DNA from: Chiloscyllium plagiosum
Lineage: Eukaryota
Direction of reading: 5' to 3'
Length of the DNA stretch: 20,000 nucleotides
Assembly (NCBI RefSeq): GCF_004010195.1
Contig: NC_057753.1
Span: forward strand, 224,668-244,667
Both the position numbers and the translations under genes were made by a program. This document shows, in pieces, positions 1 through 19,686 of the stretch (the first letter of the stretch is position 1; every line of letters starts with the position of its first letter). The notes under the pieces are model-generated. The model was not told the DNA's origin, did no database searches, and worked only from the letters and a program-made list of their open reading frames with translations.

Positions 1-323
1 AGGATTTGAGCTATAGGGAAAGGCTGAACAGGCTGGGGCTGTTTTCCCTGGAGCTTCGTAGTCTGAGGGGTGACCTGATAGAGGTTTACAAAATCATGAG
101 GGGTATGGATGGGGTAATAGGCAAAGTCTTTTCTCTGGGGTGGGGAGTCCAGAACTGGAGGTTTAGGGTGAGAGGGGAAAGATATAAAAGAGACCTACAG
201 CGCAACTTTTCACACAGAGGGTGGTACGTGCATGGAATGAGCTGCCAGAGGATGTGGTGGAGGCTGGTACGGTTGGGTTGGGATATCTGGTCGGCATGGA
301 CAGGTTGGATCGAAGGGTCTGTT

Positions 324-450
324 ATGAGAAAGTGAGGACTGCAGATGCTGGAGATCAGAGCTGAAAAATGTGTTGCTGGAAAAGCGCAGCAGGTCAGACA
401 GCATCCAAGGAGCAGGAGAATCGACGTTTCGGGCATAAGCCCTTCTTCAG
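324..450 (-). mobile_element. Short Penelope-like terminal (pseudo-LTR) element, family A copy 1
   Basis: Homologous to 5114-5243 and 7651-7845. Flanked by direct repeat GAAGGGTCTGTT (312-323, 451-462). Carries a hammerhead motif at its 5' end. Confidence 0.75.
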
Positions 451-453
451 GAA
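419..453 (-). ncRNA. Minimal type-I hammerhead ribozyme motif, core intact
   Basis: Minus strand reads UUC CUGAAGA A GGGC-UUAU-GCCC GAAA CG UC GAUU: CUGANGA box, 4-bp stem II, GAAA, palindromic ACGU and a GUC triplet. Confidence 0.7.
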
Positions 454-602
454 GGGTCTGTTTCCATGCTGTACATCTCTATGACTCTATAATTAGCTGT
501 CTGGAGGGTAGTGGAAGGGGGAGATGAACGAATTGAAAAAGAAACCAGTTGAATACTTGAGGGGAATAAACTTACAGACAATGGGAACAGAACATAAGCA
601 AG

Positions 603-2022
603 TGTCAAGCCTCACTGAGGTGGTGCGCTGGAAATCAGGCTCTGCTATTCCCACAGGCATCACAAACTTTAAGGTCTTTAAAAATGCACAGAATCCCCAA
701 TTCTCCTGTCCATTAGACCCAGGTTTACAGAAAGCACTCCCAGATTTCCATACTTGGTAATTACTACTTATTACAAACGAATAGATGGTCAGCACATAAC
801 TCTACAAATTAAAACTCTAGTCCTGTTATAGACTCCCTTTGCAAACACACAAACACAGACAGGAAATAAAAACATGAGTGTTATGGGCAGACGGAAAGGC
901 TGGGAAGGCAGCTCAATGGTTTCTGTTCACAACCACTGAGATGTCTCTTGCGTTGATTCAGAATGCTGCTTTTTGATTTTTTTTCTCTCAGAAAGCTCTC
1001 ACTGGTTTGCAGGAGGGACAGGGTGACTCATTCACACTCAATGATCACTGACTTGTTAGGTAAGTCATAGCCTACATCAACTGAGGGAGAAATGTATTGA
1101 TTTTCTGGAGGATTAAAGTGACTTTTTGCTGCAGAGACTTGTGGAGACCTGAAGGCATCTCCCTTTCTTGTGCACAAGCCCAGGCTCTTCAGCTACCTGG
1201 GAAACAATAACGTACTTCGACAAATACCTATTTTTTTGCCATTGATAACTGGTCACTAGTCCACGGACCAATCAAGTACCGGTTGCCGGCTGAATCCCCA
1301 TTTGTACATGACCCCCGCCTCCAGCTTGGCTACAAACTTTCCACTCCTGCAATTGGAAGGATGTTGTGAAACTTGAAAAGGTTAATGAAAGATTTTCAAA
1401 GATGCTGCTGAGGTTGGAGGGTTTGAGCTATATGGAGAGGCTGAATAGGCTGGGGTTACTTTCCCTGGAGCGTCGGAGGCTGAGGGGTGACCTTATGGAG
1501 ATTTAGAAGATCATGAGAGGCATTTACAGGGTGAATAGCCATGGTCTTTTCCCCAGGGTAGGGGAGTTCAATCTAGAGGGCATAGGTTTAAGGTGAATGG
1601 GGAAAGATTTAAAAGGGACCTAAGGGGCAACTTTTCACACAGATGGTGGTGTGTGTATAGAATGTTACCAGAGGTGGTGGAGGAGGCTGGTACAATTACA
1701 ACATTTAAAAGGCATCTGGATGGGCGTATGAATAGGAAGGGTTTAGAGGGATCTGAGCCAATTGCCAGAAAATGGGAAGATTGGTTTAGGATACCTGGTT
1801 GGGATGGATGGGTTGGACTGTAGGGTCTGTTCCTGTGCTGTGCAACTCTATGACTCTACTGCTTGAATTAGCAGCTGTGTAAACCATAATTACAAAGAGC
1901 ACCTGGTTACTTGTTTCTTTAGAAGTGCAGCCACCTTTCAATAATCATTGGTTTTAAAGACAGTTCACTTCTCATTTCAGTTCACTAGTTGTTTTTTGTT
2001 TGAGAGACATGGCTTGACTACA
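603..2022 (-). mobile_element. Putative solo LTR splitting an old CR1 3' end, itself interrupted by a CR1 at 1354-1858
   Basis: Starts TGTCAAGCC (603-611) and ends GGCTTGAC(TACA) (2011-2022), a short terminal inverted repeat. Has a minus-strand AATAAA at ~768-773. Flanks (~497-602, ~2025-2075) resemble consecutive CR1 3' sequence. No clean TSD. Confidence 0.4.
1354..1858 (+). mobile_element. 5'-truncated CR1/HER1-type LINE 3' end
   Basis: Paralogous to 1-490 and 6610-7210; ends CTCTATGACTCTA. Confidence 0.9.
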
Positions 2023-2189
2023 CCAGAGAGACTATAGGCAGCTGGCCTCATTCCTCTGTCCTGCAATGACTCTAAGTAACTCAACAATACAGTCCGATGA
2101 CACCGGATCTTGGCAAATTTTGCTTCCTTCTCGATTAGCACACAGTGCTGCACATTAGCAGTAGCTAGCAATCATGGTTAACCAAGAAT

Positions 2190-2573
2190 GTCGTTTTCAA
2201 AACATTCTCTATCGTGGGATGTAGATATCACTGGCAAATATTTACTGCCCACCTCTCACTGCCATTGAACTGAGTGCGTTGCTTGGGCCATTTCCAGGGA
2301 GAGTTAAGAATCAACTACATTGCTGTGGGTCAGGAGTTGTCCTTACATGGTCTGGTCTACATACAACAGGATTTCCTATCCTAAGAGGTATCAGTGACTG
2401 TTTTAATGACAACAGATGATAGACTCATGGCCACCACCACGGAGATGAGCTGCCAGATTTATTAATGGAAACTAAATTCCAGCACAGTTTGCGGTTCGAT
2501 TTGAACCCACACCCCCATGGCATCAGAATGTGCTGCTGGTTTACTAGTCAAGTGACATTGGCACTACACCATC
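2190..2573 (-). mobile_element. Old tRNA-headed SINE (possibly DeuSINE/SacSINE1-like)
   Basis: Minus-strand A-box-like TGGTGTAGTG and B-box-like GGTTCAAATC. Body is similar to 11550-11780 (CATTGCTGTGGGTCAGGAGT vs CATTGCTATGGGTCAAGAGT). Confidence 0.5.
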
Positions 2574-3086
2574 TGCAGTGCACACTGAGGAACTATTGCC
2601 ACCTCCAGTGGGGCTGCCCTGCTGCCGAGATAAAAGCCACACTAGGATGGGGATGGGGGAGGGAAGGATCTGGGACCTCGGCAAGAAGGTGCGCGTCAGC
2701 GAATACAGCTCCGTCAGGAAGCTGGGACGACTCAGCCCATTTTACCGCAGGTTAACCCAGGAGAGTGAGGCGGACCTTTGAGCACAAGTGGACGGGCTGT
2801 GCCTTTGTCCCTTCCAGTGCCCAGGTGGACGGCAGATCACATGCCAGTCCTGTTTCCAGACATCAAGCAAATTCCCTTCATCAACTACGTGTCACCTCAC
2901 CACAAAACTCATTCAAGTTTGTCTCAACCCAATTCGCCCGTGACAAATTAACAGAGTGGGGACTTACTCGGTGGGAAATTTGGGATGGGAAGGATGCAGC
3001 TGAGACAATGGAGGAGCTAATCGAGATGCAAGTGACATGCACGCCGAGACGGGATCTGGTGCAGGAATTCAAAATCATGAGGCGCC

Positions 3087-4325
3087 TCAACAGGGGAGAT
3101 CTATTCCCTGCCTATTCACACGTCCAACAAGATGCCTCTGAAATGCTGCTATTGTATCCACCTCTGGCAGCATATTCCAAGCACTTGCCACCCTCTTTTG
3201 GGGAAAAAAAAACATCTTACCTCTCACATCTCCTTTAAACCTTCCTACTTTTAACTTAAACCTACATACCCAAGCAATTGACACTTCCATGGGGAAACAA
3301 AAAGAAAGAGACTCAACTATCCATGCCCCCCCATAATTCTGTAAACTTTTATTGAAGTGAAAACAAGCCAAGTTTGTCCAATCTCTCCTCATGGCTAATA
3401 CCCTCCAAACCAGGCAACATCTGAGTAAACTGCTTCTGTACCCTCTTCAAAGTCTCCACATGATTCTTGTAGCGTGGTGACCAGAACTCGACACAATATT
3501 CCAAATGCGGCCTAACTGAAGTTCTGTATAGCTGCAACATTACTGGTCAATTTTTATACTCTATTCCCCAACCATTGAATGAGAGGATACTATATGGCCT
3601 TCTTGATGATCTTATCCACTCGGTGTTGCCACATCCAGGGAATTGTGGACCTGTATGCAGAGATCCCTCTGTATGTTGATATTATTAAGGTTCTACCATT
3701 TATCGTATACTTACCTCTGGCGTCAATCTTCTAAGATGCGTCACCTTGTATTTGTCTGGATTAAACTCTATTCTGTTGCTTCTCCTATCTATATCCTGCT
3801 GTACCCTGGCAATTCACTTCACTGTCTGCAGCTCCCCCAGTTTTTGTATTGTTCACAAACTTAGTCACCAGGCCACTAAATCATTGCCAACACCAGGTGT
3901 CCCAGCCCTGAACCCCATGGAATACCCACTGGTCGCAGATCTCCAGCCAGAAAAATGCCCTTCCATGCTACTCTCTGTGACTAAGCTGTTCTGTGTCCAT
4001 CTTCCCAGCTCACAACAGATCCACTGTGGCTTTTGTATCAGTCCGTCTGCCATGCGTGACCCAGGGAGGCCTGCAGTACAACCTTAAAGTGACTGCACCC
4101 TTTCTATTCCCACGATTTATCCACATGGCCTCACGACTCACGGCCTCCAAGGTGTCATCTTGTCAGTATAGAAGTGTTATTCTCCCAAATCAGGAACACA
4201 ACTCACCCATCTCTTTTATATTCCTCTCTATCATGTCTGAGACATCTACATCCTGGCATATTAAGCTGCCAGCCTTGCCCCTCGTTCAACCAAGTCTCTG
4301 TAATAGCTACAGCATCATAGTTATA
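3087..4325 (-). mobile_element. Decayed CR1 LINE ORF2 fragments (RT C-terminus and endonuclease)
   Basis: LQLYRTSVRPHLEYCVEFWSPRY (CR1 RT C-terminus) and YDAVAITETWL (APE-type endonuclease motif); many stops and frameshifts. Confidence 0.85.
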
Positions 4326-4328
4326 TAC

Positions 4329-5040
4329 AGTCACAGATGTACAGCACAAGCAAAGACCCCTCAGTCCAAGTCGTCCATGCTGAATGGATATCCTAAACTG
4401 ATCTAGTCCCATTTGCCAGCACTTGGCCCATATCCCTCCAAACCCTTCCTATTCATATACCCATCCAAATGCCTTTTAAATGCTGTAATTGTACCAGCCT
4501 CCACCACTTCTCTGGCAACTCATTTCATATACACACACCACCCTCTGTGAGAAAAAGTTGCCCCTCGGGTACCTTTTAAATCTTTTCCCTCTCACCTTAA
4601 CCCTGTGCCCTCTAGTTTTGGACTCACCTATGATGGGAAAAAGAACTTGGCTATCCACCCTATCCACGCCTCTCGTGATTTCACAAATCTTTATATGATC
4701 ACCCCTCAGCCTCGCTGTTCCAGGAAAAATATCCCCAGCCTATTCAGCCTCTCGCTATAACTCAAATCCTCCAACCCCAGCAACAGCCTTGTAAACCTTT
4801 TCTGAACCCTTTCAAGTTTCACCACATCTTTCCTATAGCAGAAAGACCAGAATTGAACACAGTATTCCAATAGCGGCCGAACCAATGTCCTGTGCAGCTA
4901 CAATGTGACCTCCCAACTCCTACACTGACCAGTAAAGCAAGCACATCAAACTCCTCCTTCACTAACTTGTCTAGCCCAACTCCACTGTCAAGGAACGATG
5001 AGCCTGCACTCCAAGGTCTCTTTGTCCGGCAACACTCCCC
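4329..5040 (-). mobile_element. CR1/HER1-type LINE 3' end
   Basis: Reverse complement of the 3' region seen at 1354-1858 (ESKTRGHRVKVRGKRFKR), with the tail at ~4330. Confidence 0.9.
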
Positions 5041-5113
5041 GCTCTCGTGAAAGGATTGGGTTGAAGGAGGCACAGATTGAAAGTAACAGGCAAAAGTGCC
5101 AAAGATAAATGTT

Positions 5114-5243
5114 TTCCTGATGAAGAGCTTATGCTCACAACGTCCACTCTCCTGCTCCTCGGATGCTGCCTGACCTACTGTGCTTTTCCAGCACCACACT
5201 CTCGACTCTGATCTCCATGCATCTGCAGTCCTTACTTTCTCAT
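5114..5243 (+). mobile_element. Penelope-like family A copy 2, degenerate hammerhead
   Basis: CTGATGA A GAGC-TTAT-GCTC ACAA CGTC, followed by the family body to ...CTGCAGTCCTTACTTTCTC. Confidence 0.72.
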
Positions 5244-5259
5244 AGCAAGTAATTCTGGT

Positions 5260-5760
5260 CTGTAATCAGCGTGCCTGCCATGCCTGACCTCATACAAAGT
5301 ATTGCTAAAGTCAATATCGACCACTCGGCCTTCATTAATCACTTCTGTCACTTCTTCAACAACCTTCCCCGCAGAAAGCCATGCTGCCGATCACTAATAA
5401 GTCTATATTTTTCCCCAGATCGGAGTAAATCCTAAGAATCTTCTCCAATAGTTGCCCAATTACTGGCCTGTAATTGCCTAGATTATCCTTAGACCCTTAA
5501 ACAAAGGAACAACATTGGCTATTTGCCAGTTCCCTGGGATTTCTCCTGTCACTAAAGAATTCACACAACGCCCCAACAATTTCTTCATTTGCCTCCCTTA
5601 GCATTCTGGGAGAGACCCCATCGTGCTTTGTGGACCTGTCCATCATAACGCTTTTTAAAACACCAAACACCGTTTTCTTTTGTATAATTGTCATGTACCA
5701 GAACATCAAAATGCTGCTTCTGAGAGCCCACCATCCACCATGTCCACCTCTTTTGTGAAT
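5260..5760 (-). mobile_element. Decayed CR1 ORF2 fragments
   Basis: DGVSPRMLREANEEI...ANSQC resembles the CR1 pre-RT region. Confidence 0.65.
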
Positions 5761-5824
5761 CCTGATTCAAAGTATTTATTGAGGACTTCAGAGACTCCGA
5801 TGGTTTTGGGAGGGCGAGGGTAAC

Positions 5825-6066
5825 GTTCACTTGAATGGCTTGCATCTGGAGTGTACAGCTTAAGGCAATGACGGAGGCAGGTTCACTCGAGAAGTTAGGG
5901 TGTGGCGCACACAGTCCAAGACTATCTTGGTGCTGGTGATCACTTGCGCGGTTATTTTGTGGAGTTCACAGCCCGAGATGGGGTACAAGGCAGGTCACTC
6001 GAGTGGTTAGGGTGTAGACTGCACAACAGACTGTGGTTGAGGCAAAGAGAAATTGGATGGTTATTT
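5825..6066. repeat. Degenerate ~56-57 bp tandem repeat with alternating units
   Basis: TCACT(C/T)G..GGTTA-like motif at ~5827, 5883, 5940, 5995 and partly ~6051. AGGCAGG(T)TCACTCGAG..GTTAGGGTGT occurs at 5875 and 5988. Confidence 0.55.
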
Positions 6067-6609
6067 GTGAAGGAATAACGTGCGAGGTTGGGAGGAAGGA
6101 ACGGGAGAGTCGCACCATGTTGCGGATGCTAGGTCAGATAGCCAGTGCAAACATGATGGGCCAAACTGTAGGTGCTTGAAGGGAAAGACACTGAGATGTA
6201 CTGAACCTGATCAAAAGAGATTCTGGAGATCTTGGATTGCCAGTGCAACAGTTTGGAAAGAGCAGACAGTGCATGATCCCTTTGCAAAGGTCCAGGGGCA
6301 TGGTTTGAAGCTCTCCCCTTCTCAGCTGGCTGTATGTGTGATCAGCATTACACTACTAGATGGCACTGTTGTACCAAATATACTTCAGACCAGATTGGGA
6401 GCAAATATTTCAGCTGCCATGCAATTAGCACTATAGTAATAAATGTACACACTCTTTCCCAAATGAGTAGCAACTTGCAGCAAACTAAATTATAATTGTG
6501 TGCAAGTTACTCAGTTTTAATCTGCCAAAATGCCCCAAACTAACCATCACAAATGCAAATATTTTGGTGCTTCTTAAGCTTGCAACTGTGGAAGACAGAC
6601 TGGTGAGGA

Positions 6610-7210
6610 TGCCTTTATGGCATTGAGTATAAGACTTGGGGGGGGAGGTCACATTGCGGCTGTACAGGGCATTGGTTCGACCACTGTTGGAATATGTTCA
6701 ATTCTGGGTCCCCCTGCTATAGGAAAGATGTTGCCAAACTTGAAAGGATTCAGAAAAGATTTAGAAGGATGTTGCCAGAGATTGAGGGTTTGAGCTATAG
6801 CGAGGGACTGAATACGCTGAGGCTGAGCATCAGAGGCCGAGAGGTGACCTTATCGAGGCTTATAAAATCATGAGGGGCACGGACAAGGTGAATAGTCAAG
6901 ATCTTTTTCCTATGGGAGTCCAAAACTAGAGGGCATAGGATTAAAGTGAGGAGGAAAACATTTAAAAGGGACCCGAGTGGCAATGTTTTCATGTAGAGGG
7001 TGGTTTTTTGTGTGGAACAGAGGAAGTGGTGGAGGCTGGTAAAATTACAACATTTAAAAGGCATCTGGATGGGTAAGTGAATGGGAAGGGTTGGGAGGGA
7101 TATGGGTCAAGTGCTGGCAAACGGGACTAGATTAATTAGGATATTGGGCCAGCACAGAAGAGTTGGCCTAATGGGTCCATTTCCATGCTGCACATCTCCA
7201 TGATTCTATG
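6610..7210 (+). mobile_element. CR1/HER1-type LINE 3' fragment
   Basis: Paralogous to 1354-1858; tail CATCTCCATGATTCTATG. Confidence 0.9.
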
Positions 7211-7252
7211 AGGTCAAGCACGTTTGCTTTCCTCTTAGTGGCTCCTTCACTA

Positions 7253-8900
7253 ACTGGAGGGTGGCTAATGTTGTCCCATTTTCAAGAAAAGAGGGAGAGA
7301 GAAAACAGGGAATTATAGACCGGTTAGCCTGACGTCAGTGGTGGGAAAGATGCTGGAGTCAATTATGAAAGATGAAATTACGACTCATTTGGATAGCAGT
7401 AACAGGATAGGTCTGAGTCAGCATGGATTTACGAAGGGGAAATAGTGCTTGACTAACCTCCTGGAATGTTTTGAGGATGCAACTATGAAGATGGACAAGG
7501 GAGAGCCAGTGAATATAGTGTACCTAGACTTTCAGAAAGCCTTTGATAAGGTCCCACATAGGAGACTAATGAGCAAAATTAGGGCACATGGTATTGGGGC
7601 AAAATACTGACTTGGATTGAAAATTGGCTGGCTGACAGGAAGCAAACAGTGCTTAAAAATGTGTTGCTGGAAAAGCACAGCAGGTCAGGCAGCATCAAAG
7701 GAGAAGGAGAATTGACATTTCTGAAGAAGGGCTTATGCCTGAACCGTCGATTCTCCTTCTCCTTTGATGCTGCCTGACCTGCTGCGCTTTTCCAGGAACA
7801 CATTTTTAAGCTCTGATCCCCAGGATCTGCAGTCCTCACTTTCTCCAGGAAGCAAACAGTAGTGATGAATGGGTCCCTATCGGAATGGCAGGCGGTAACC
7901 AGTGAGGTACCACAAGGTTCGGTGCTGGGACCGCAGCTGTTTACAATATACATTAGTGATATAGATGAAAGTATTAAAAGTAATATTAGCAAATTTGCTG
8001 ATGACACAAAGCTGGGTGGCAGGGTGAAATGTGAGGATATTAGGAGATCACAGGGTGACCTGGACAGGTTAGGTGAGTGGACGGATGCAGCTTAACGTGG
8101 ATAAATGTGTGGTTATCCACTTTGGTGGCAAGAACAGGAAGGCAGAATACTGTCAAAATGGAGTCAAGTTAGGTAAAGGAGCAATACAACAAGATCTAGG
8201 TGTTCTTGTACATCAGTCAATGAAAGCAAGCATGCAGGTACAGCAGGCAGTGAAGAAAGCTAATGGATTGCTGGCCTTCGTAACAAGAGGAATTGAGTAT
8301 AGGAGCAAAGAGATCCTTCTGCAGCTGTACCCAGGGCCCTGGTGAGATCGCACCTGGAGTATTGTGTGCAGTTTTGGTCTCCAAATTTGAGGAAAGACAT
8401 TCTGGCTATTGAGGGAGTGCAGGGTAGGTTCACGAGGTCAATTCCCAGAATGGCGGGACTATCTTACGCTGAAAGATTGGAGTGATTGGGCTTATATACC
8501 CTTGAGTTTAGAAGGCTGAGAGGGGATCTGATTGAGACGTATAAGGTTATTAAAGGATTGGACACGCTGGACGCAGGAGGCAAGATTCCACTGATGGGTG
8601 GGTCCAAAACCAGAGGATACGGTTTTAAAATAAGGGGTAGGCCATTTAGAAGAGTTGAGGAGAAACTTCATCACCCAGAGAGTTGTGGGTGTATGGAACG
8701 CTCTGCCCCAGAAGGCAGTGAAGGCCAAGTCTCTGGATACTTTCGAGAAAGAGTTGGATAGAGCTCTTAAAGATAGTGGAATCAAGGATTATGGGGATAA
8801 GGCAGGAACAGGATACTGATTGCGGGTGATCAGCCATGATCATAATGAATGGTGGTGCTGGCTCGAAGGGCCGAACGGCCTACTCCTTCACCAATTGTTA
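7253..8900 (+). mobile_element. ~1.6-kb 5'-truncated CR1 LINE with RT domain (inactive)
   Basis: [20 protein letters not shown]...[12 protein letters not shown] motifs and VYLDFQKAFDKVPH. Contains stops/frameshifts and an insertion at 7651-7845. Confidence 0.95.
7651..7845 (+). mobile_element. Penelope-like family A copy 3 with inverted partial copy (fold-back)
   Basis: 15-bp TSD CAGGAAGCAAACAGT (7636-7650, 7846-7860). Arms 7651-7721 and 7741-7811 are inverted. Hammerhead motif at 7721-7748. Confidence 0.8.
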
Positions 8901-12630: not shown

Positions 12631-12633
12631 AGT

Positions 12634-12905
12634 CATGATTTGGAGATGCCGGTGTTGGAACTGGGGTGAACAGCGTTAAAAGTCACACAACGCCAGGTTA
12701 TAGTCCAACAGGTTTAATTGGAAGCACACCAGCTTTCGGAGCGACGCTCCTTTATCAAGTGGTGATAGCGAGACAATGTGTTGAAGGTGTTAGCCCCCTG
12801 TGTTCTCTGTCTATGACCTGATGTTGAGATTGATTCCAATCTAAAAAGTGAAATAACAGAGTTTTACATAAATTCATGCAGTTTTTGAGCAAAGTGCAAT
12901 GTAAC
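12634..12905 (-). mobile_element. Penelope-like element family B terminal fragment
   Basis: Interrupts the CR1 and carries a hammerhead-like motif at 12727-12761; family assigned by recognition. Confidence 0.6.
12727..12761 (-). ncRNA. Minimal hammerhead-like motif (U3-A8 variant, N17=G)
   Basis: CAC UUGAUAA A GGAGC-GUC-GCUCC GAAA GC UG GUG: 3-bp stem I, 5-bp stem II and palindromic AGCU. Confidence 0.55.
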
Positions 12906-13224
12906 CCTCATTGTCCTCCCCCCCCCCTGTACTCAATGACTACGGGGGGGGGGAGGGGGGGGTGGGGCTTGTAGCCACAGGCGGACAATGAGGGAGTCGC
13001 GCGAAGAGGAGAACAATGGGGCGGGGAGGGGCCGTCACCAGAACAATGGGCCGAGCGGCCTCCATTACGCGACTGGATTCCGCGCATGCGCCCATCCCGG
13101 TCTCCCGCTCCGACCGCTAAGATGGCGGGCCGGTTGCCCCTGGCAACGGGGAAGCGCAGCGCTGCCGGGGGAGGGGAAGTGAGACAAAACTAAAACTCCC
13201 TGTGTTTCCTGGAGGACGGGGTCA

Positions 13225-13269
13225 CCACACACTCACACTCACACTCGCACTCTCTCTCTCTCTCTCTCT
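13225..13269. repeat. Compound (CA/CACT)n-(CT)n microsatellite
   Basis: Direct reading of the sequence. Confidence 0.85.
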
Positions 13270-13283
13270 GGGGAATGTCTTAC

Positions 13284-13321
13284 CTGCTCCAGCCGGACGG
13301 ACGGACTGACGGCGCGTCCAT
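13284..13321 (-). CDS. Putative first coding exon of an unidentified minus-strand gene (MDAPSVRPSGWS-R, phase 2)
   Basis: Strong Kozak context GTGAAGATGG and consensus donor CAG|GTAAGA at 13284/13283. Two NRF1-like GCGCCTGCGC motifs lie just upstream. It could instead be a 5'UTR exon. Confidence 0.5.
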
Positions 13322-13960
13322 CTTCACCCGCCCATCACCACCAGCTCTGCTGCGCCTGCGCGGTGATCCCTCTGCGCCTGCGCGGTAGCTCCAGCCGCCT
13401 CCCCGCTCCCCACCCTCCGGGAAAAAAAATAGGGACGGGGCCGCGCCCCGCTCCGTGCGGACATGCGCGCGCACGCACACGCACACACAGCAAAGGCAGA
13501 GGCGGCCCGGCGACAGGGCCCCGCTTCGTCCGTCACCGCCGCCGCCGCCAACAACAACACCCTGCACCGGTGGATCGGCCGCAACAGCCGGTTATTTTTT
13601 AGGGTGAGGAGGAGGACGGGACGGACTGTGGTGGCCGGGGGGGGGGGGAAACCGGCGGCTGCCCCCGCGCGGCGCACCACGGGAATGGTGGGTGGGTGCA
13701 GCTGCCCCCCCACGGCACGGGGCCGCCGCTGGGGAGGGGAAGGGGAAGGGGAAGGGGCGGGGCCTCCGGTTCCCAGGCAACGTGGCGCCCGGCCCCGCCT
13801 ACTCGCCAGCTCGCGCCGACGTGCGCGTTCCCGTCTCCCCTTCCAACCAGCAGCCGCGTGCGCGATGACGTCACTGCGCCCCTTTCGCGCTCTCCCTCCA
13901 CTCCCCCAGGGGGGGCGCGCCTTCAACTATTGCGCGCGATCGCGCGGGACCTTCCCTCTC

Positions 13961-13992
13961 CGTGCGTGTGTGTGTGCGCGCGCGCGCGCGCG
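13961..13992. repeat. Alternating purine-pyrimidine (TG)n(CG)n tract
   Basis: 32 bp of uninterrupted alternation. Confidence 0.85.
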
Positions 13993-14997
13993 AGCGAGAG
14001 GGAGAGAGCGAAACACCTTTCCCCCAGCTCCGACTGGACCGCTCGGTGGAACGGCCGCTGACCGACAGCGAGCGGCGGCCAATGGGGAGACGGGGTGCCG
14101 GGCCGCTCCATTGTTCGGCGCGCGGCCAATGGCGGAGCGGCCAGGGGGCGGGACTTGCGGCGGCCGGCCCAGACTGAGGCCGGAGTCTCTTTGTCTCCCA
14201 GCGCAGCCTCTGTGCCAGGGCCCCGGCCTTGGTGCTGCTGCAGCAGCTGCAGGCCAGGCATAGGCGCCCAGGCCTTGGGTGGGTGGGGGACGGGGGACTG
14301 GGGACGGGAGGGGGGGTGGGGTGGCGTGGCGTGGCGTGGCCAGACGGGGTTGGTTGGTGCAACCCACCCTTCCCTCCACTCCACTCCATGTCATTGCAAC
14401 CTGCGGCCCTGCACCCAGATTTCATGGTAGATGCACGTTTCCTCTTTATTTGCAAAAAAAAATGTTCTAAGCAAACCAAAAAGCGAAGAGATCGGGAGAT
14501 CTGTTTGCAATCCCTGAAGGAATCTGCAGCCTGTGGTTGGTTCGTGCCAGAATTATTATTATTTTCAACCTTACCACCCCCTTAATCCCATCTCTTTTAT
14601 TTTCTTCCCCCTCCTTTCTCTCTCCTGCAATTGCATTTTTTTTATTGGGAGGGTGTGTGTGTGTGTCTGGATGTTAAAGGGGGCAGGCTCTTCTTAAAGG
14701 GGCAGTTCTTTTTCGGAGGAGGGAGGCTCTTTGGCTGGTGGTGTGGGTTACAGAGAGCCCACCACTCTGGGGTCTCCTGCTGTGATGGTGCTGAAAAGTA
14801 CAGCCCCCTCAAGCCAGTTGCCAAGTTGATAGGTGACCCAGAGGGGGCAAAGAGCTTTCCCTAACGTTCTTCTCCTTTTGTCCGGAAGGCGGTGGAGGAC
14901 ACCTCAGCACCAAATGACCCCCCGTCTCCGAATGTGGATGGTAGGTGGGAAGGGATGTGGCAGTCCGCTAGTCAAAGAGACCGGATCTCTGTCAGTC

Positions 14998-16142: not shown

Positions 16143-16418
16143 AGTCAGAGTCATAGAGATGTACAGCACGGAAACAGACCCTTCGGTCCAACCCGTCCAT
16201 GCCGACCAGATATCCCAACCCAATCTAGTCCCACCTGCCAGCACCCGGCCCATATCCCTTCAAACCCTTCCTATTCATATACCCATCCAGATGCCTCTTA
16301 AATGTTGCAATTGTACCAGCCTCCACCACATCCTCTAGCAGCTCATTCCATACACGTACCACCCTCTGTGTGAAAGAGTTTCCCCTTAGATCCCTTTTAT
16401 ATTTTTCCCCTCTCACCT
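16143..16418 (-). mobile_element. Young 5'-truncated CR1/HER1-type 3' end
   Basis: RGEKYKRDLRGNSFTQRVVRVWNELLEDVVEAGTIATFKRHLD is uninterrupted and followed by a GACTCT-type tail. Confidence 0.92.
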
Positions 16419-17103: not shown

Positions 17104-17226
17104 CAGCACCGTGGCTCAGTGGTTAGTGCTGCTGCCTCTCAGGGAGCCCAGGGATCGATCCCACCCTCGGAGCGATTGCCCTGTGTGGAGTTTGCACTCT
17201 CTCCCTCATGTCTGTGCGGGTTTTCC
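17104..17226 (+). mobile_element. HE1/V-SINE-type 5' part
   Basis: A-box TGGCTCAGTGG and CTGTGTGGAGTTTGCAC; inverted homologue of 18030-18155. Confidence 0.8.
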
Positions 17227-17239
17227 TGCATTATTGGCA

Positions 17240-18002
17240 AATTTAGCATGGCCTATCCATCCTAACCTGCACATCCATGGGCACTGTGGGTAATTTAGAA
17301 CGGCCAGTCCATCCTAACCTGCGCATCCATGGGCACTGTGGGTAATTTAGAACGGCCAGTCCATCCTTACCTGCACAGCCCAGGGCACTATGGGTAATTT
17401 AGAACGGCCAGTCCATCCTAACCTGCACATCCATGGGCACTATGGGTAATTTAGTATGGCCAGTCCATCCTAACTTGCACATCCCTGGACACAATGGGTA
17501 AGTTAGCATGGCCAATCCACCCTAACCTGCACATCACTGGGCACTGTGGGTAATTTAGTATGGCCAGTCCATCCTAACTTGCACATCCCTGGACACAATG
17601 GGTAAGTTAGCATGGCCAATCCACCCTAACCTGCACATCCCTGGGCACTATGGGTAATTTAGCACGGCCAATCCACCCTAACCTGCACATCCCTGGGCAC
17701 TGTGGCTAATTTAGCAAGGCCAATTCACCCTGACCTGCACATCCCTGGGCACTGTGGGTAATTTAGCATGGCCTATCAATCCTAACCTGCACATCCATGG
17801 GCACTGTGGGTAATTTAGCACGGCCAATCCACCCTAACCTGCACATCCCTGGGCACTGTGGGTAATTTAACACGGCCAGTCCATCCTAACCTGCACATCC
17901 CTGGGCACTGTGGGTAATTTAGCACGGCCAGTCCATCCTAACCTGCACAACCCAGGGCACTATGGGTAATTTAGCACGGCCAATCCACCCTGACCTGCAC
18001 AC
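17240..18002. repeat. 52-bp minisatellite, ~14.7 units, derived from the SINE body
   Basis: Unit AATTTAGCAYGGCCARTCCAYCCTAACCTGCACATCCCTGGGCACTRTGGGT starts every 52 bp from 17240 to 17968. Confidence 0.97.
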
Positions 18003-18155
18003 CTTTGGACTGTGGGAGGAAACCGGAGCACCCGGAGGAAACCCACACAGACACGGGGAGAATGTGCAAACTCCACACAGACAGTCGCCGGAGGCCGGAA
18101 TTGAACCCGGGTCTCTGGTGCTGTGAGGCAGCAGTGCTAACCCACTGAGCCACCG
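17968..18155 (-). mobile_element. HE1/V-SINE-type element, intact tRNA-derived head
   Basis: A-box TGGCTCAGTGG (18152-18142) and B-box GGTTCAATTCC (18107-18097). V-domain-like GTGGGTTTCCTCCGGGTGCTCCGGTTTCCTCCCAC. Runs directly into the minisatellite. Confidence 0.9.
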
Positions 18156-18433
18156 GGCCCCTTCTTTGAGCTTTTTTTTTTTCTGTGTGTTTTTTTTTCC
18201 CTTTTGTCAGAGCTGCTTTCCCCTTCCCGCGGGTTTCTCTGCTGGACTGATGGAAATCTCTTTTCTGTGAATCTCTCTGGCGCTGTGAGGCAGCAGTGCT
18301 AACCCACTGAGCCACCGGGCCCCTTCTTTGAGCTTTTTTTTTCTGTGTGTTTTTTTTTCCCTTTTGTCAGAGCTGCTTTCCCCTTCCCGCGGGTTTCTCT
18401 GCTGGACTGATGGAAATCTCTTTTCTGTGAATC
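18112..18433. repeat. Near-perfect ~160-bp tandem duplication
   Basis: 18112-18273 vs 18274-18433 differ by one substitution and T-run length. Confidence 0.93.
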
Positions 18434-18555
18434 CCTTTTCCGCAGAGGACCGGCCAGCGAGGGTGTGTGGGCGAGGACCCCCCGGAGAGACAGCGGCCTG
18501 GGCTGAGAATCTGACGGAGGCTTCCCGGGAGCGGGGGCCCCGGCGCCGCCGCGGC

Positions 18556-19686
18556 ATGGAGACGGCGAACGGCAAGCCGGCCGGCGAGGGGAAGGCGGCG
18601 GGGCGCCGGGCCGCGGGCGAGGGGCGCCCCCGGGAGAAGACGCACAAGTGCGGCGACTGCGGCAAGAGCTACCACACCCAGTCGGAGCTGGAGACCCACC
18701 GGCGCGGGCACACCGGCGAGCGCCCCTTCTGCTGCCCGGTCTGCGAGAAGGGCTTCACCCGCTCCTCGGACCTGCGGGTGCACCAGCGGGTGCACACCGG
18801 CGAGCGGCCCTTCGCCTGCCCGGTCTGCGAGAAGAGCTTCACCCGCTCGTCGCACCTGCTGACCCACCAGCGGGTGCACACCGGCGAGCGGCCCTACAGC
18901 TGCTCGGTCTGCGGCAAGGGCTTCACCCAGCTCTCCAACCGGCTGCGGCACCAGCGGCTGCACACCGGCGAGCGGCCCTTCACCTGCCCGGTGTGCCGCA
19001 AGGGCTTCACCGACTCCTCCACCCTGCTGCGGCACCAGCGGCTGCACACCGAGGAGCGGCCCTTCACCTGCTCGGTGTGCGGCAAGGGCTTCACCCGCTC
19101 GCCGCACCTGCTGACCCACCAGCGGGTGCACACCGGCGAGCGGCCCTTCTCCTGCTCGGTGTGCGGCCGTCGCTTTACTCAGTCCTCCCACCTGCTGACC
19201 CACCAGCACAGCCACACCGGGGAGAGGCCCTTCCGCTGCTCGGTGTGCGGCCGCGGCTTCACCCAGCTCTCCCTGCTGCTGGCCCACCAGCACCTGCACG
19301 CCGAGAACAACCCAGTCAAGTACCCGGACGGCGAGGAGCCGGGCGCCGGCGAGGAGGAGGGCAGCCAGGGGGTGGCAACGCCCGCCCTGCTGCCCCCGCC
19401 CCCGCTGGGGCCCCCCCGGCCTGCCCAGGCCGGCGAGCGGCCCTTCAAGTGCTCGGTGTGCGCCAAGGCCTTCACCTGCCTCTCCCACCTGCTGCGGCAC
19501 CTGCGGGTGCACAGCGGCGAGCGGCCCTTCCAGTGCACCGTCTGCGAGAAGGGCTTCACCCAGTCGTCCAGCCTGCTCACCCACCAGCGCATCCACACCG
19601 GCGAGCGGCCCTTCTCCTGCTCGCAGTGTGGCAAGGGCTTCTCCCGCTCCTCCCACCTCCTTCGGCACCAGAGAGTGCACGTTTGA
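18556..19686 (+). CDS. C2H2 zinc-finger protein, 11 fingers (8+3), 376 aa from the first in-frame ATG
   Basis: Repeated C-X2-C-X12-H-X3-H with TGERP linkers. Kozak GCCGCGGCATGG. Acceptors at 18370 and 18445 leave the frame open, so an upstream exon may extend the N-terminus. Confidence 0.93.
   Translation: METANGKPAGEGKAAGRRAAGEGRPREKTHKCGDCGKSYHTQSELETHRRGHTGERPFCCPVCEKGFTRSSDLRVHQRVHTGERPFACPVCEKSFTRSSHLLTHQRVHTGERPYSCSVCGKGFTQLSNRLRHQRLHTGERPFTCPVCRKGFTDSSTLLRHQRLHTEERPFTCSVCGKGFTRSPHLLTHQRVHTGERPFSCSVCGRRFTQSSHLLTHQHSHTGERPFRCSVCGRGFTQLSLLLAHQHLHAENNPVKYPDGEEPGAGEEEGSQGVATPALLPPPPLGPPRPAQAGERPFKCSVCAKAFTCLSHLLRHLRVHSGERPFQCTVCEKGFTQSSSLLTHQRIHTGERPFSCSQCGKGFSRSSHLLRHQRVHV

Follow-up and report, generated by a model that had tools for sequence, protein, structure and literature searches.

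Short hammerhead-headed inserts in the genome of Chiloscyllium plagiosum as possible run-off stubs of a Penelope-like element

A 20,000-nt stretch of the Chiloscyllium plagiosum genome (contig NC_057753.1, positions 224,668 to 244,667 of the forward strand; hereafter the window) carries three related copies of a repeat of about 130 nt, each headed by the CUGANGA box of a hammerhead ribozyme. An earlier note on this stretch took the repeat for a discrete non-autonomous unit, retrozyme-like or a solo terminal repeat moved in trans. How do such short units come to start at a ribozyme core, and does the ribozyme have any part in making them? We suggest, with somewhat better than even confidence, that the three inserts are dead end-pieces of an endonuclease-bearing (EN+) Penelope-like element (PLE), left by a reverse transcriptase (RT) that starts internally, some 125 nt in from the 5′ terminus of the element RNA, and runs off that terminus. 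Positions within the repeat are counted from the C of the CUGANGA box as +1, which is window 450 on the minus strand in copy 1, 5117 in copy 2, and 7721 in copy 3.

Three copies and their insertion boundaries

BLAST of copy 1 against the window returned copy 3 (92.8% identity over 125 nt, E 4e-50), copy 2 (5117-5243; 85.2% identity over 128 nt, E 5e-36), and a fourth, partial match in inverted orientation at 7721-7647, the next unrelated match having an E value of 0.08. The relatedness of the three copies, as claimed in the earlier note, is thus borne out. On alignment, all three have CUGA(A/U)GA at +1 and CTTTCTC ending at +125.

Copy 1 (324..450, minus strand), delimited by BLAST and alignment, is probably a 127-nt PLE end-piece, and the motif scan shows an intact minimal type I hammerhead in it. 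It is flanked by 12-bp direct repeats, a target-site duplication (TSD; here and below given without strand), at 312..323 and 451..462, which lie within the 3′ end of a long interspersed nuclear element (LINE); the first three bases of the right repeat are also the family's -3..-1, a microhomology. The same 12-mer is present once in another LINE 3′ end (window 16147-16226, minus strand), which represents the empty site. Public sequencing runs were also aligned to window 264-510 (X3, 131,059 contigs, saturated; X15, 12,520 contigs; X23, 3,928 reads; X24, none), the three informative runs being X3 and X15, with DNA contigs, and X23, with RNA reads from a poly(A)-selected library. Results from these runs refer to the best 18 of 819 loose-end entries, 15 of 308 joints, and 40 of 93 variants, and the contig counts are biased toward short copies. 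Overall, at least half of the words in the copy 1 region, LINE flank included, occur in 20 of the 24 listed runs, which come from four organisms. The empty site appears as 311 joined to 451 in 127 RNA reads (about 79 start places) and 11 DNA contigs. Therefore, with empty sites both in the window and in public reads, copy 1 is a real insertion.

Copy 3 is a composite. Its 15-bp TSD (7636..7650 and 7846..7860) encloses 195 nt (7651-7845), namely a 71-nt inverted arm (7651..7721, minus strand) and then, head to head with it, a direct arm (7721..7845, plus strand). The inverted arm covers +21..+91, is devoid of the 34-nt tail, and has its inner end at the foot of stem II; the direct arm covers +1..+125 including the tail. 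The resulting fold-back hairpin is far more stable than shuffled sequences (z -15.7). Both arms differ from copy 1 at the same four sites (+38, +45, +53, and +88), thereby indicating one source, and the letter at +53 in the arms is the majority letter of the family. The left TSD lies within the RT coding region of a LINE, and the LINE RT sequence picks up again at the right one. This host LINE (7240..8620, plus strand), split by copy 3 and CR1-type as we infer, matches Pfam RVT_1 positions 64-97 to the left of the insertion and 107-163 to its right; its best named relatives are LINE RTs of bird, turtle, and frog.

Copy 2 (5114..5246, plus strand) is more diverged and has no TSD, the best candidates beside its ends being 7-9 nt with 2-3 mismatches. 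It lies amid decayed minus-strand LINE remnants, pieces that, going by their motifs, appear to have lost an RT stretch. Between a LINE remnant and copy 2, about 70 nt (window 5041-5113) match nothing else in the window; this stretch may be filler from the event that erased the TSD. A possible microhomology of 1-3 nt is seen at the 5′ junctions of all three copies. Besides, the letter at +126 (window 325 and 5242) is A in copies 1 and 2 and C in 161 of 165 reads, which is unexplained.

The earlier description of three copies of matching length is, accordingly, true of the repeat module and of one TSD-defined insertion only, the 71-nt inverted arm within the 195-nt insertion of copy 3 having been left out. 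Both TSDs that had been claimed were found, the 15-bp one enclosing more than the unit. Likewise, the two TSD-bearing copies do lie inside LINEs, and copy 2 is LINE-associated too, making three. Targeting of LINEs was considered and rejected: LINE remnants make up about half of the first 9 kb (by eye), so three of three is unremarkable. At other loci, DNA contigs repeatedly join element ends to the short tandem tail of a LINE 3′ end (489-492 to 326, 328, or 365, and 453 to 489 or 490, among the joints listed). Such joints may reflect a target preference or mere abundance.

The hammerhead motif and the family ends in public reads

The motif of copy 1 consists of a CUGAAGA core at 450-444, an extra A, a 4-bp stem II at 442-431, GAAA at 430-427, and a palindromic ACGU helix III. 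A strict minimal-hammerhead descriptor, run on the window and on 10 Markov simulations, matched once in the window, at copy 1, vs once in total over the simulations. Judged by its sequence, the copy 1 hammerhead fits the minimal hammerhead described for metazoan PLEs (Cervera and de la Pena 2014, PMC4209133). Both have a type I core with an extra base between core and stem II, a G-C pair at the foot of stem II, a loopless palindromic helix III, and a weak helix I, and both occur mostly as solo motifs, assigned there to truncated PLEs. Unlike in the schistosome families, stem II has 4 bp here vs 7-8 bp there, and no description of clustered 5′ ends such as those seen here was found in the abstract, results, and discussion of that paper.

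The copies are ribozyme-headed, as the earlier note put it, in that all three carry the box at +1; the core is intact in copy 1 only, with GAAA replaced by ACAA in copy 2 and by GAAC in copy 3. Stem II of copy 2 has a compensatory A-U pair. Among the variants listed, 34% of 917 reads differ at the free N of CUGANGA, and 10-32% at positions of loop II. Rfam returned no hammerhead family among the 12 matches to the window at E<=1; those 12 were discarded, all being miRNA-hairpin models under their gathering scores, from the copy 3 fold-back and a hairpin at 12900. Taken singly, the units are no more stably folded than shuffled sequences (z -0.21, -0.75, and +1.36). The hammerhead fold did not come out when copy 1 was folded as a circle or as a dimer, a result that is uninformative for a motif with an unpaired core.

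The cut is predicted at a UC site after +28, between 423 and 422, where only two adjacent stem I pairs are available. It falls inside the unit, and the copies, as well as both arms of copy 3, run across it. Therefore, the inserts are not self-cleaved retrozyme monomers: self-cleavage would yield monomers with +29 as their first base and the core at their end, whereas the copies seen here open upstream of the core and contain the cut site. Nor does the window contain any tandem array of the unit. Head-to-tail joints at the unit ends, as a circular RNA of about 130 nt would give, were absent from the 15 of 308 joints listed, which is a weak test with a poly(A)-selected library. The retrozyme-like nature proposed in the earlier note is thus not supported.

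The reads also bear on where the family ends. Loose 5′ ends are most abundant at 453 (-3) in each of the three informative runs (1054 and 135 contigs and 555 reads). On the 3′ side, run X23 has one pile at 326 (+125), with 657 reads and mixed flanks, and another at 365, with 197 reads; in the latter the consensus still matches to about +94, with mixed flanks beyond. There are thus two recurring 3′ end classes 31-34 nt apart, the shorter of which agrees with the copy 3 arm. Upstream of the core, the three run consensuses have a continuation in common (18 and 20 of 30 letters against X23, by eye), and therefore a longer repeat exists in some family members. Agreement along this continuation is low, 0.34-0.48, which corresponds to roughly 0-30% long copies under simple mixture assumptions. 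Most copies, then, have their 5′ end only a few bases before the core, and the rest enter a common upstream repeat. The ends are not random, as the earlier note had held; its discrete non-autonomous unit does not fit the inverted-plus-tail composite of copy 3, nor the copies that run on upstream. Movement in trans is nevertheless conceivable, as no autonomous partner was found.

Origin of the inserts

EN+ PLE insertion units consist of a pseudo-long terminal repeat (pLTR), an adjacent inverted 5′-truncated copy, and an optional 30-40-bp tail, as given in two accounts (Craig et al. 2021, PMC8557442; Arkhipova et al. 2013, PMC3846280). Four EN+ PLE features are present here, namely the minimal type I hammerhead, the inverted truncated copy, the optional tail, and short TSDs (in two of the three copies). 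Specifically, TSDs of about 10-15 bp, a head-to-head inverted arm, a 34-nt tail on one arm only, solo terminal-repeat copies, and a hammerhead within the repeat are all shared with the elements of those accounts. The PLE and hammerhead setting of the earlier note is upheld by this architecture. Unlike those elements, the units here are cut down to about 130 nt, their 5′ ends cluster at the upstream edge of the hammerhead, and an ORF-bearing partner is unseen. At the family level the inserts are ordinary, since solo minimal hammerheads of truncated PLEs have already been described in large numbers in vertebrates. No description of the 130-nt family or of run-off stubs was found in the literature searched, a body of work that left most subscription papers, Dfam, and Repbase outside it. 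Three collection scans and one window scan for family members gave no matches. Two further scans gave 22 + 10 loci, which we attribute to chance: in 25 of the 32, BLAST matched just 20-34 nt around the seed, and in 7 nothing.

How PLE reverse transcription starts has been studied in vitro with PAc, a Poseidon element of Anolis carolinensis (Frangieh et al. 2024, PMC11167929). On the PAc RNA, RT starts internally, at two sites separated by one tail and 111-118 nt into an ORF beginning at hammerhead stem II; uncleaved RNA is the substrate, both target strands are extended, and the minimal RNA requires the first 172 nt of the ORF. Our repeat resembles PAc in its fixed 3′ ends about 111-120 nt past stem II (117-120 nt from the start of stem II here vs 111-118 in PAc, the tail here being 34 nt), in its two end classes one tail apart, and in a template uncut at the hammerhead. 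In contrast to PAc, with its ORF beginning at stem II, the loop II ATG is here only partly conserved. Furthermore, an internal promoter drives PLE transcripts that begin in the upstream terminal repeat (PMC2377424, PMC6765202).

Run-off would follow if an internal RT start site lay in both terminal repeats of the PLE RNA. A start at the 5′ repeat would copy no more than about 130 nt, since the RNA itself would begin a few bases before CUGANGA, and a start at the 3′ repeat would yield the longer copies. Transcription would begin at an initiator-like TCATTC, with its A at -4. The upstream read consensus together with window bases gives this word at -6..-1; when compared with the initiator consensus, the chance of such a word in the 10-nt zone ranges from 0.9% (TCAKTY) to 9% (YYANWYY). 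The inverted arm of copy 3 may come from second-target-end priming at the tail-less site or from fold-back of a short cDNA. Stubs of this kind would be without the region downstream of the RT start that PAc needs, and therefore probably dead on arrival, with no further movement. The hammerhead would be carried along as a passenger and would not cut out the unit.

Several points weigh against run-off. The RT + GIY-YIG partner proposed in the earlier note was not found in the viral, genome, and metagenome contig collections scanned or in the window, and it is therefore from architecture alone that PLE membership is read. A 42-aa frame gave no protein or Pfam match, and the ATG at +15 in loop II, its candidate ORF start, is altered in about 32% of reads. 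The 5′-end distribution is only partly measured (best 18 of 819 loose-end entries, with contigs favouring short copies). The upstream consensus signal extends to about -8/-9, farther than the start proposed at -4, and neither molecule starts nor molecule ends are listed as a pile in the reads. A transcription start at the 5′ edge of the stubs is our own inference, and the initiator word was spotted after the fact, pieced together from the read consensus and three window bases. Likewise, the rules of PAc were worked out in vitro on a single Poseidon element, and this family may not follow them. Finally, a stall would place an end at the foot of stem II, which is where the copy 3 arm stops.

This last point leads to the next explanation, which we regard as possible, though rather unlikely. 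It keeps the same PLE origin, with stubs copied from the 3′ terminal repeat and ended by RT stalling, cDNA cutting, or fold-back at a protein-bound hammerhead, no transcription start being involved. The inner end of the copy 3 arm at +21, exactly the foot of stem II, fits it, as do the protein-assisted hammerhead of PAc (PMC11167929), the heavy 5′ truncation of PLEs (PMC8557442), and the possible junction microhomology in all three copies. However, RT arrives from the 3′ side of the hammerhead, so stalls would be expected at +20..+36, whereas the main pile lies upstream of the whole motif; the cDNA head, moreover, folds no better than shuffled sequences (z -0.02 and -0.19).

It is quite improbable, in our view, that the repeat is instead a self-sufficient Penelope version of a short interspersed nuclear element (SINE). 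Here, 130-nt masters with an internal promoter would be read-through transcribed and retrotransposed in trans by PLE proteins to very high copy number, the unit holding an initiator, an uncut hammerhead (as protein-binding or promoter element), and an RT start. The clustering of ends at both sides in the reads and the initiator-like word at the unit head suit such a family; precedents are the internal promoter of Drosophila virilis Penelope (PMC2377424), pLTRs acting in trans in Adineta (PMC3846280), and the known non-autonomous Chlamys elements. In run X23, moreover, one read orientation is mildly overrepresented across the element, at about 1000 vs 380-690. In contrast, the stubs stop at the RT start, without the downstream region that PAc requires (PMC11167929), longer family members exist in the reads, and the copy 3 insertion is not unit-length. 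Were it true, this would be a hammerhead-bearing non-autonomous vertebrate family that moves with neither self-cleavage nor circles, and the PLE transcription start could be mapped across the genome from the sharp 5′ edge of the family.

Non-LTR retrozymes, as described in two reports (Cervera and de la Pena 2020, PMC7229834; Li et al. 2026, 10.64898/2026.07.22.740005), are similar in being non-coding, in their type I hammerhead, in their kinship to and derivation from PLE pLTRs, in their large TSDs, and in the occurrence of solo monomers, and the second places them in one chondrichthyan genome. Even so, an origin from tandem transcripts self-cleaved into linear or circular RNAs of about 130 nt, then reverse-transcribed and inserted, is very unlikely: retrozymes are defined by tandem units and expressed circles, whereas the copies here are solo or inverted, their boundaries do not fall at the cut site, and their hammerhead is of the minimal PLE type with a weak stem I.

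If run-off is the true origin, the stubs would be an in vivo outcome of the internal initiation that PAc shows in vitro, comparable to strong-stop DNA, and run-off would explain how genomes fill with solo hammerheads. The stubs would further offer a cheap test of PLE transcript starts and of ribozyme cutting of the transposition template.

Neighbouring features of the window

Elsewhere in the window, 12632-12905 on the minus strand is likely a stub of a second hammerhead-bearing repeat, presumably of a different family. It has a decayed core at 12758, a 5-bp stem II, and an intact GAAA; about 127 nt separate the core from the apparent 3′ end, another 145 nt or so lie upstream, and no TSD was found beside it. 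The relaxed hammerhead motif that it contains is, by itself, not above chance in simulations. Adjoining this stub is a GC-rich, perfect-looking hairpin with poly-C and poly-G arms (12900-12973), the site of weak Rfam miRNA matches.

A CpG island with CCAAT and GC boxes spans 13000-14330 and may be a bidirectional promoter, with a possible minus-strand first exon near 13283-13330 (by eye). Further on, a SINE-like element (17106-18160) contains an internal 52-bp unit expanded to 15 tandem copies (17240-18016). Next comes a 160-bp tandem duplication (18112-18433), and directly downstream lies a GC-rich C2H2 zinc-finger ORF with no apparent introns (18537-19686, plus strand).

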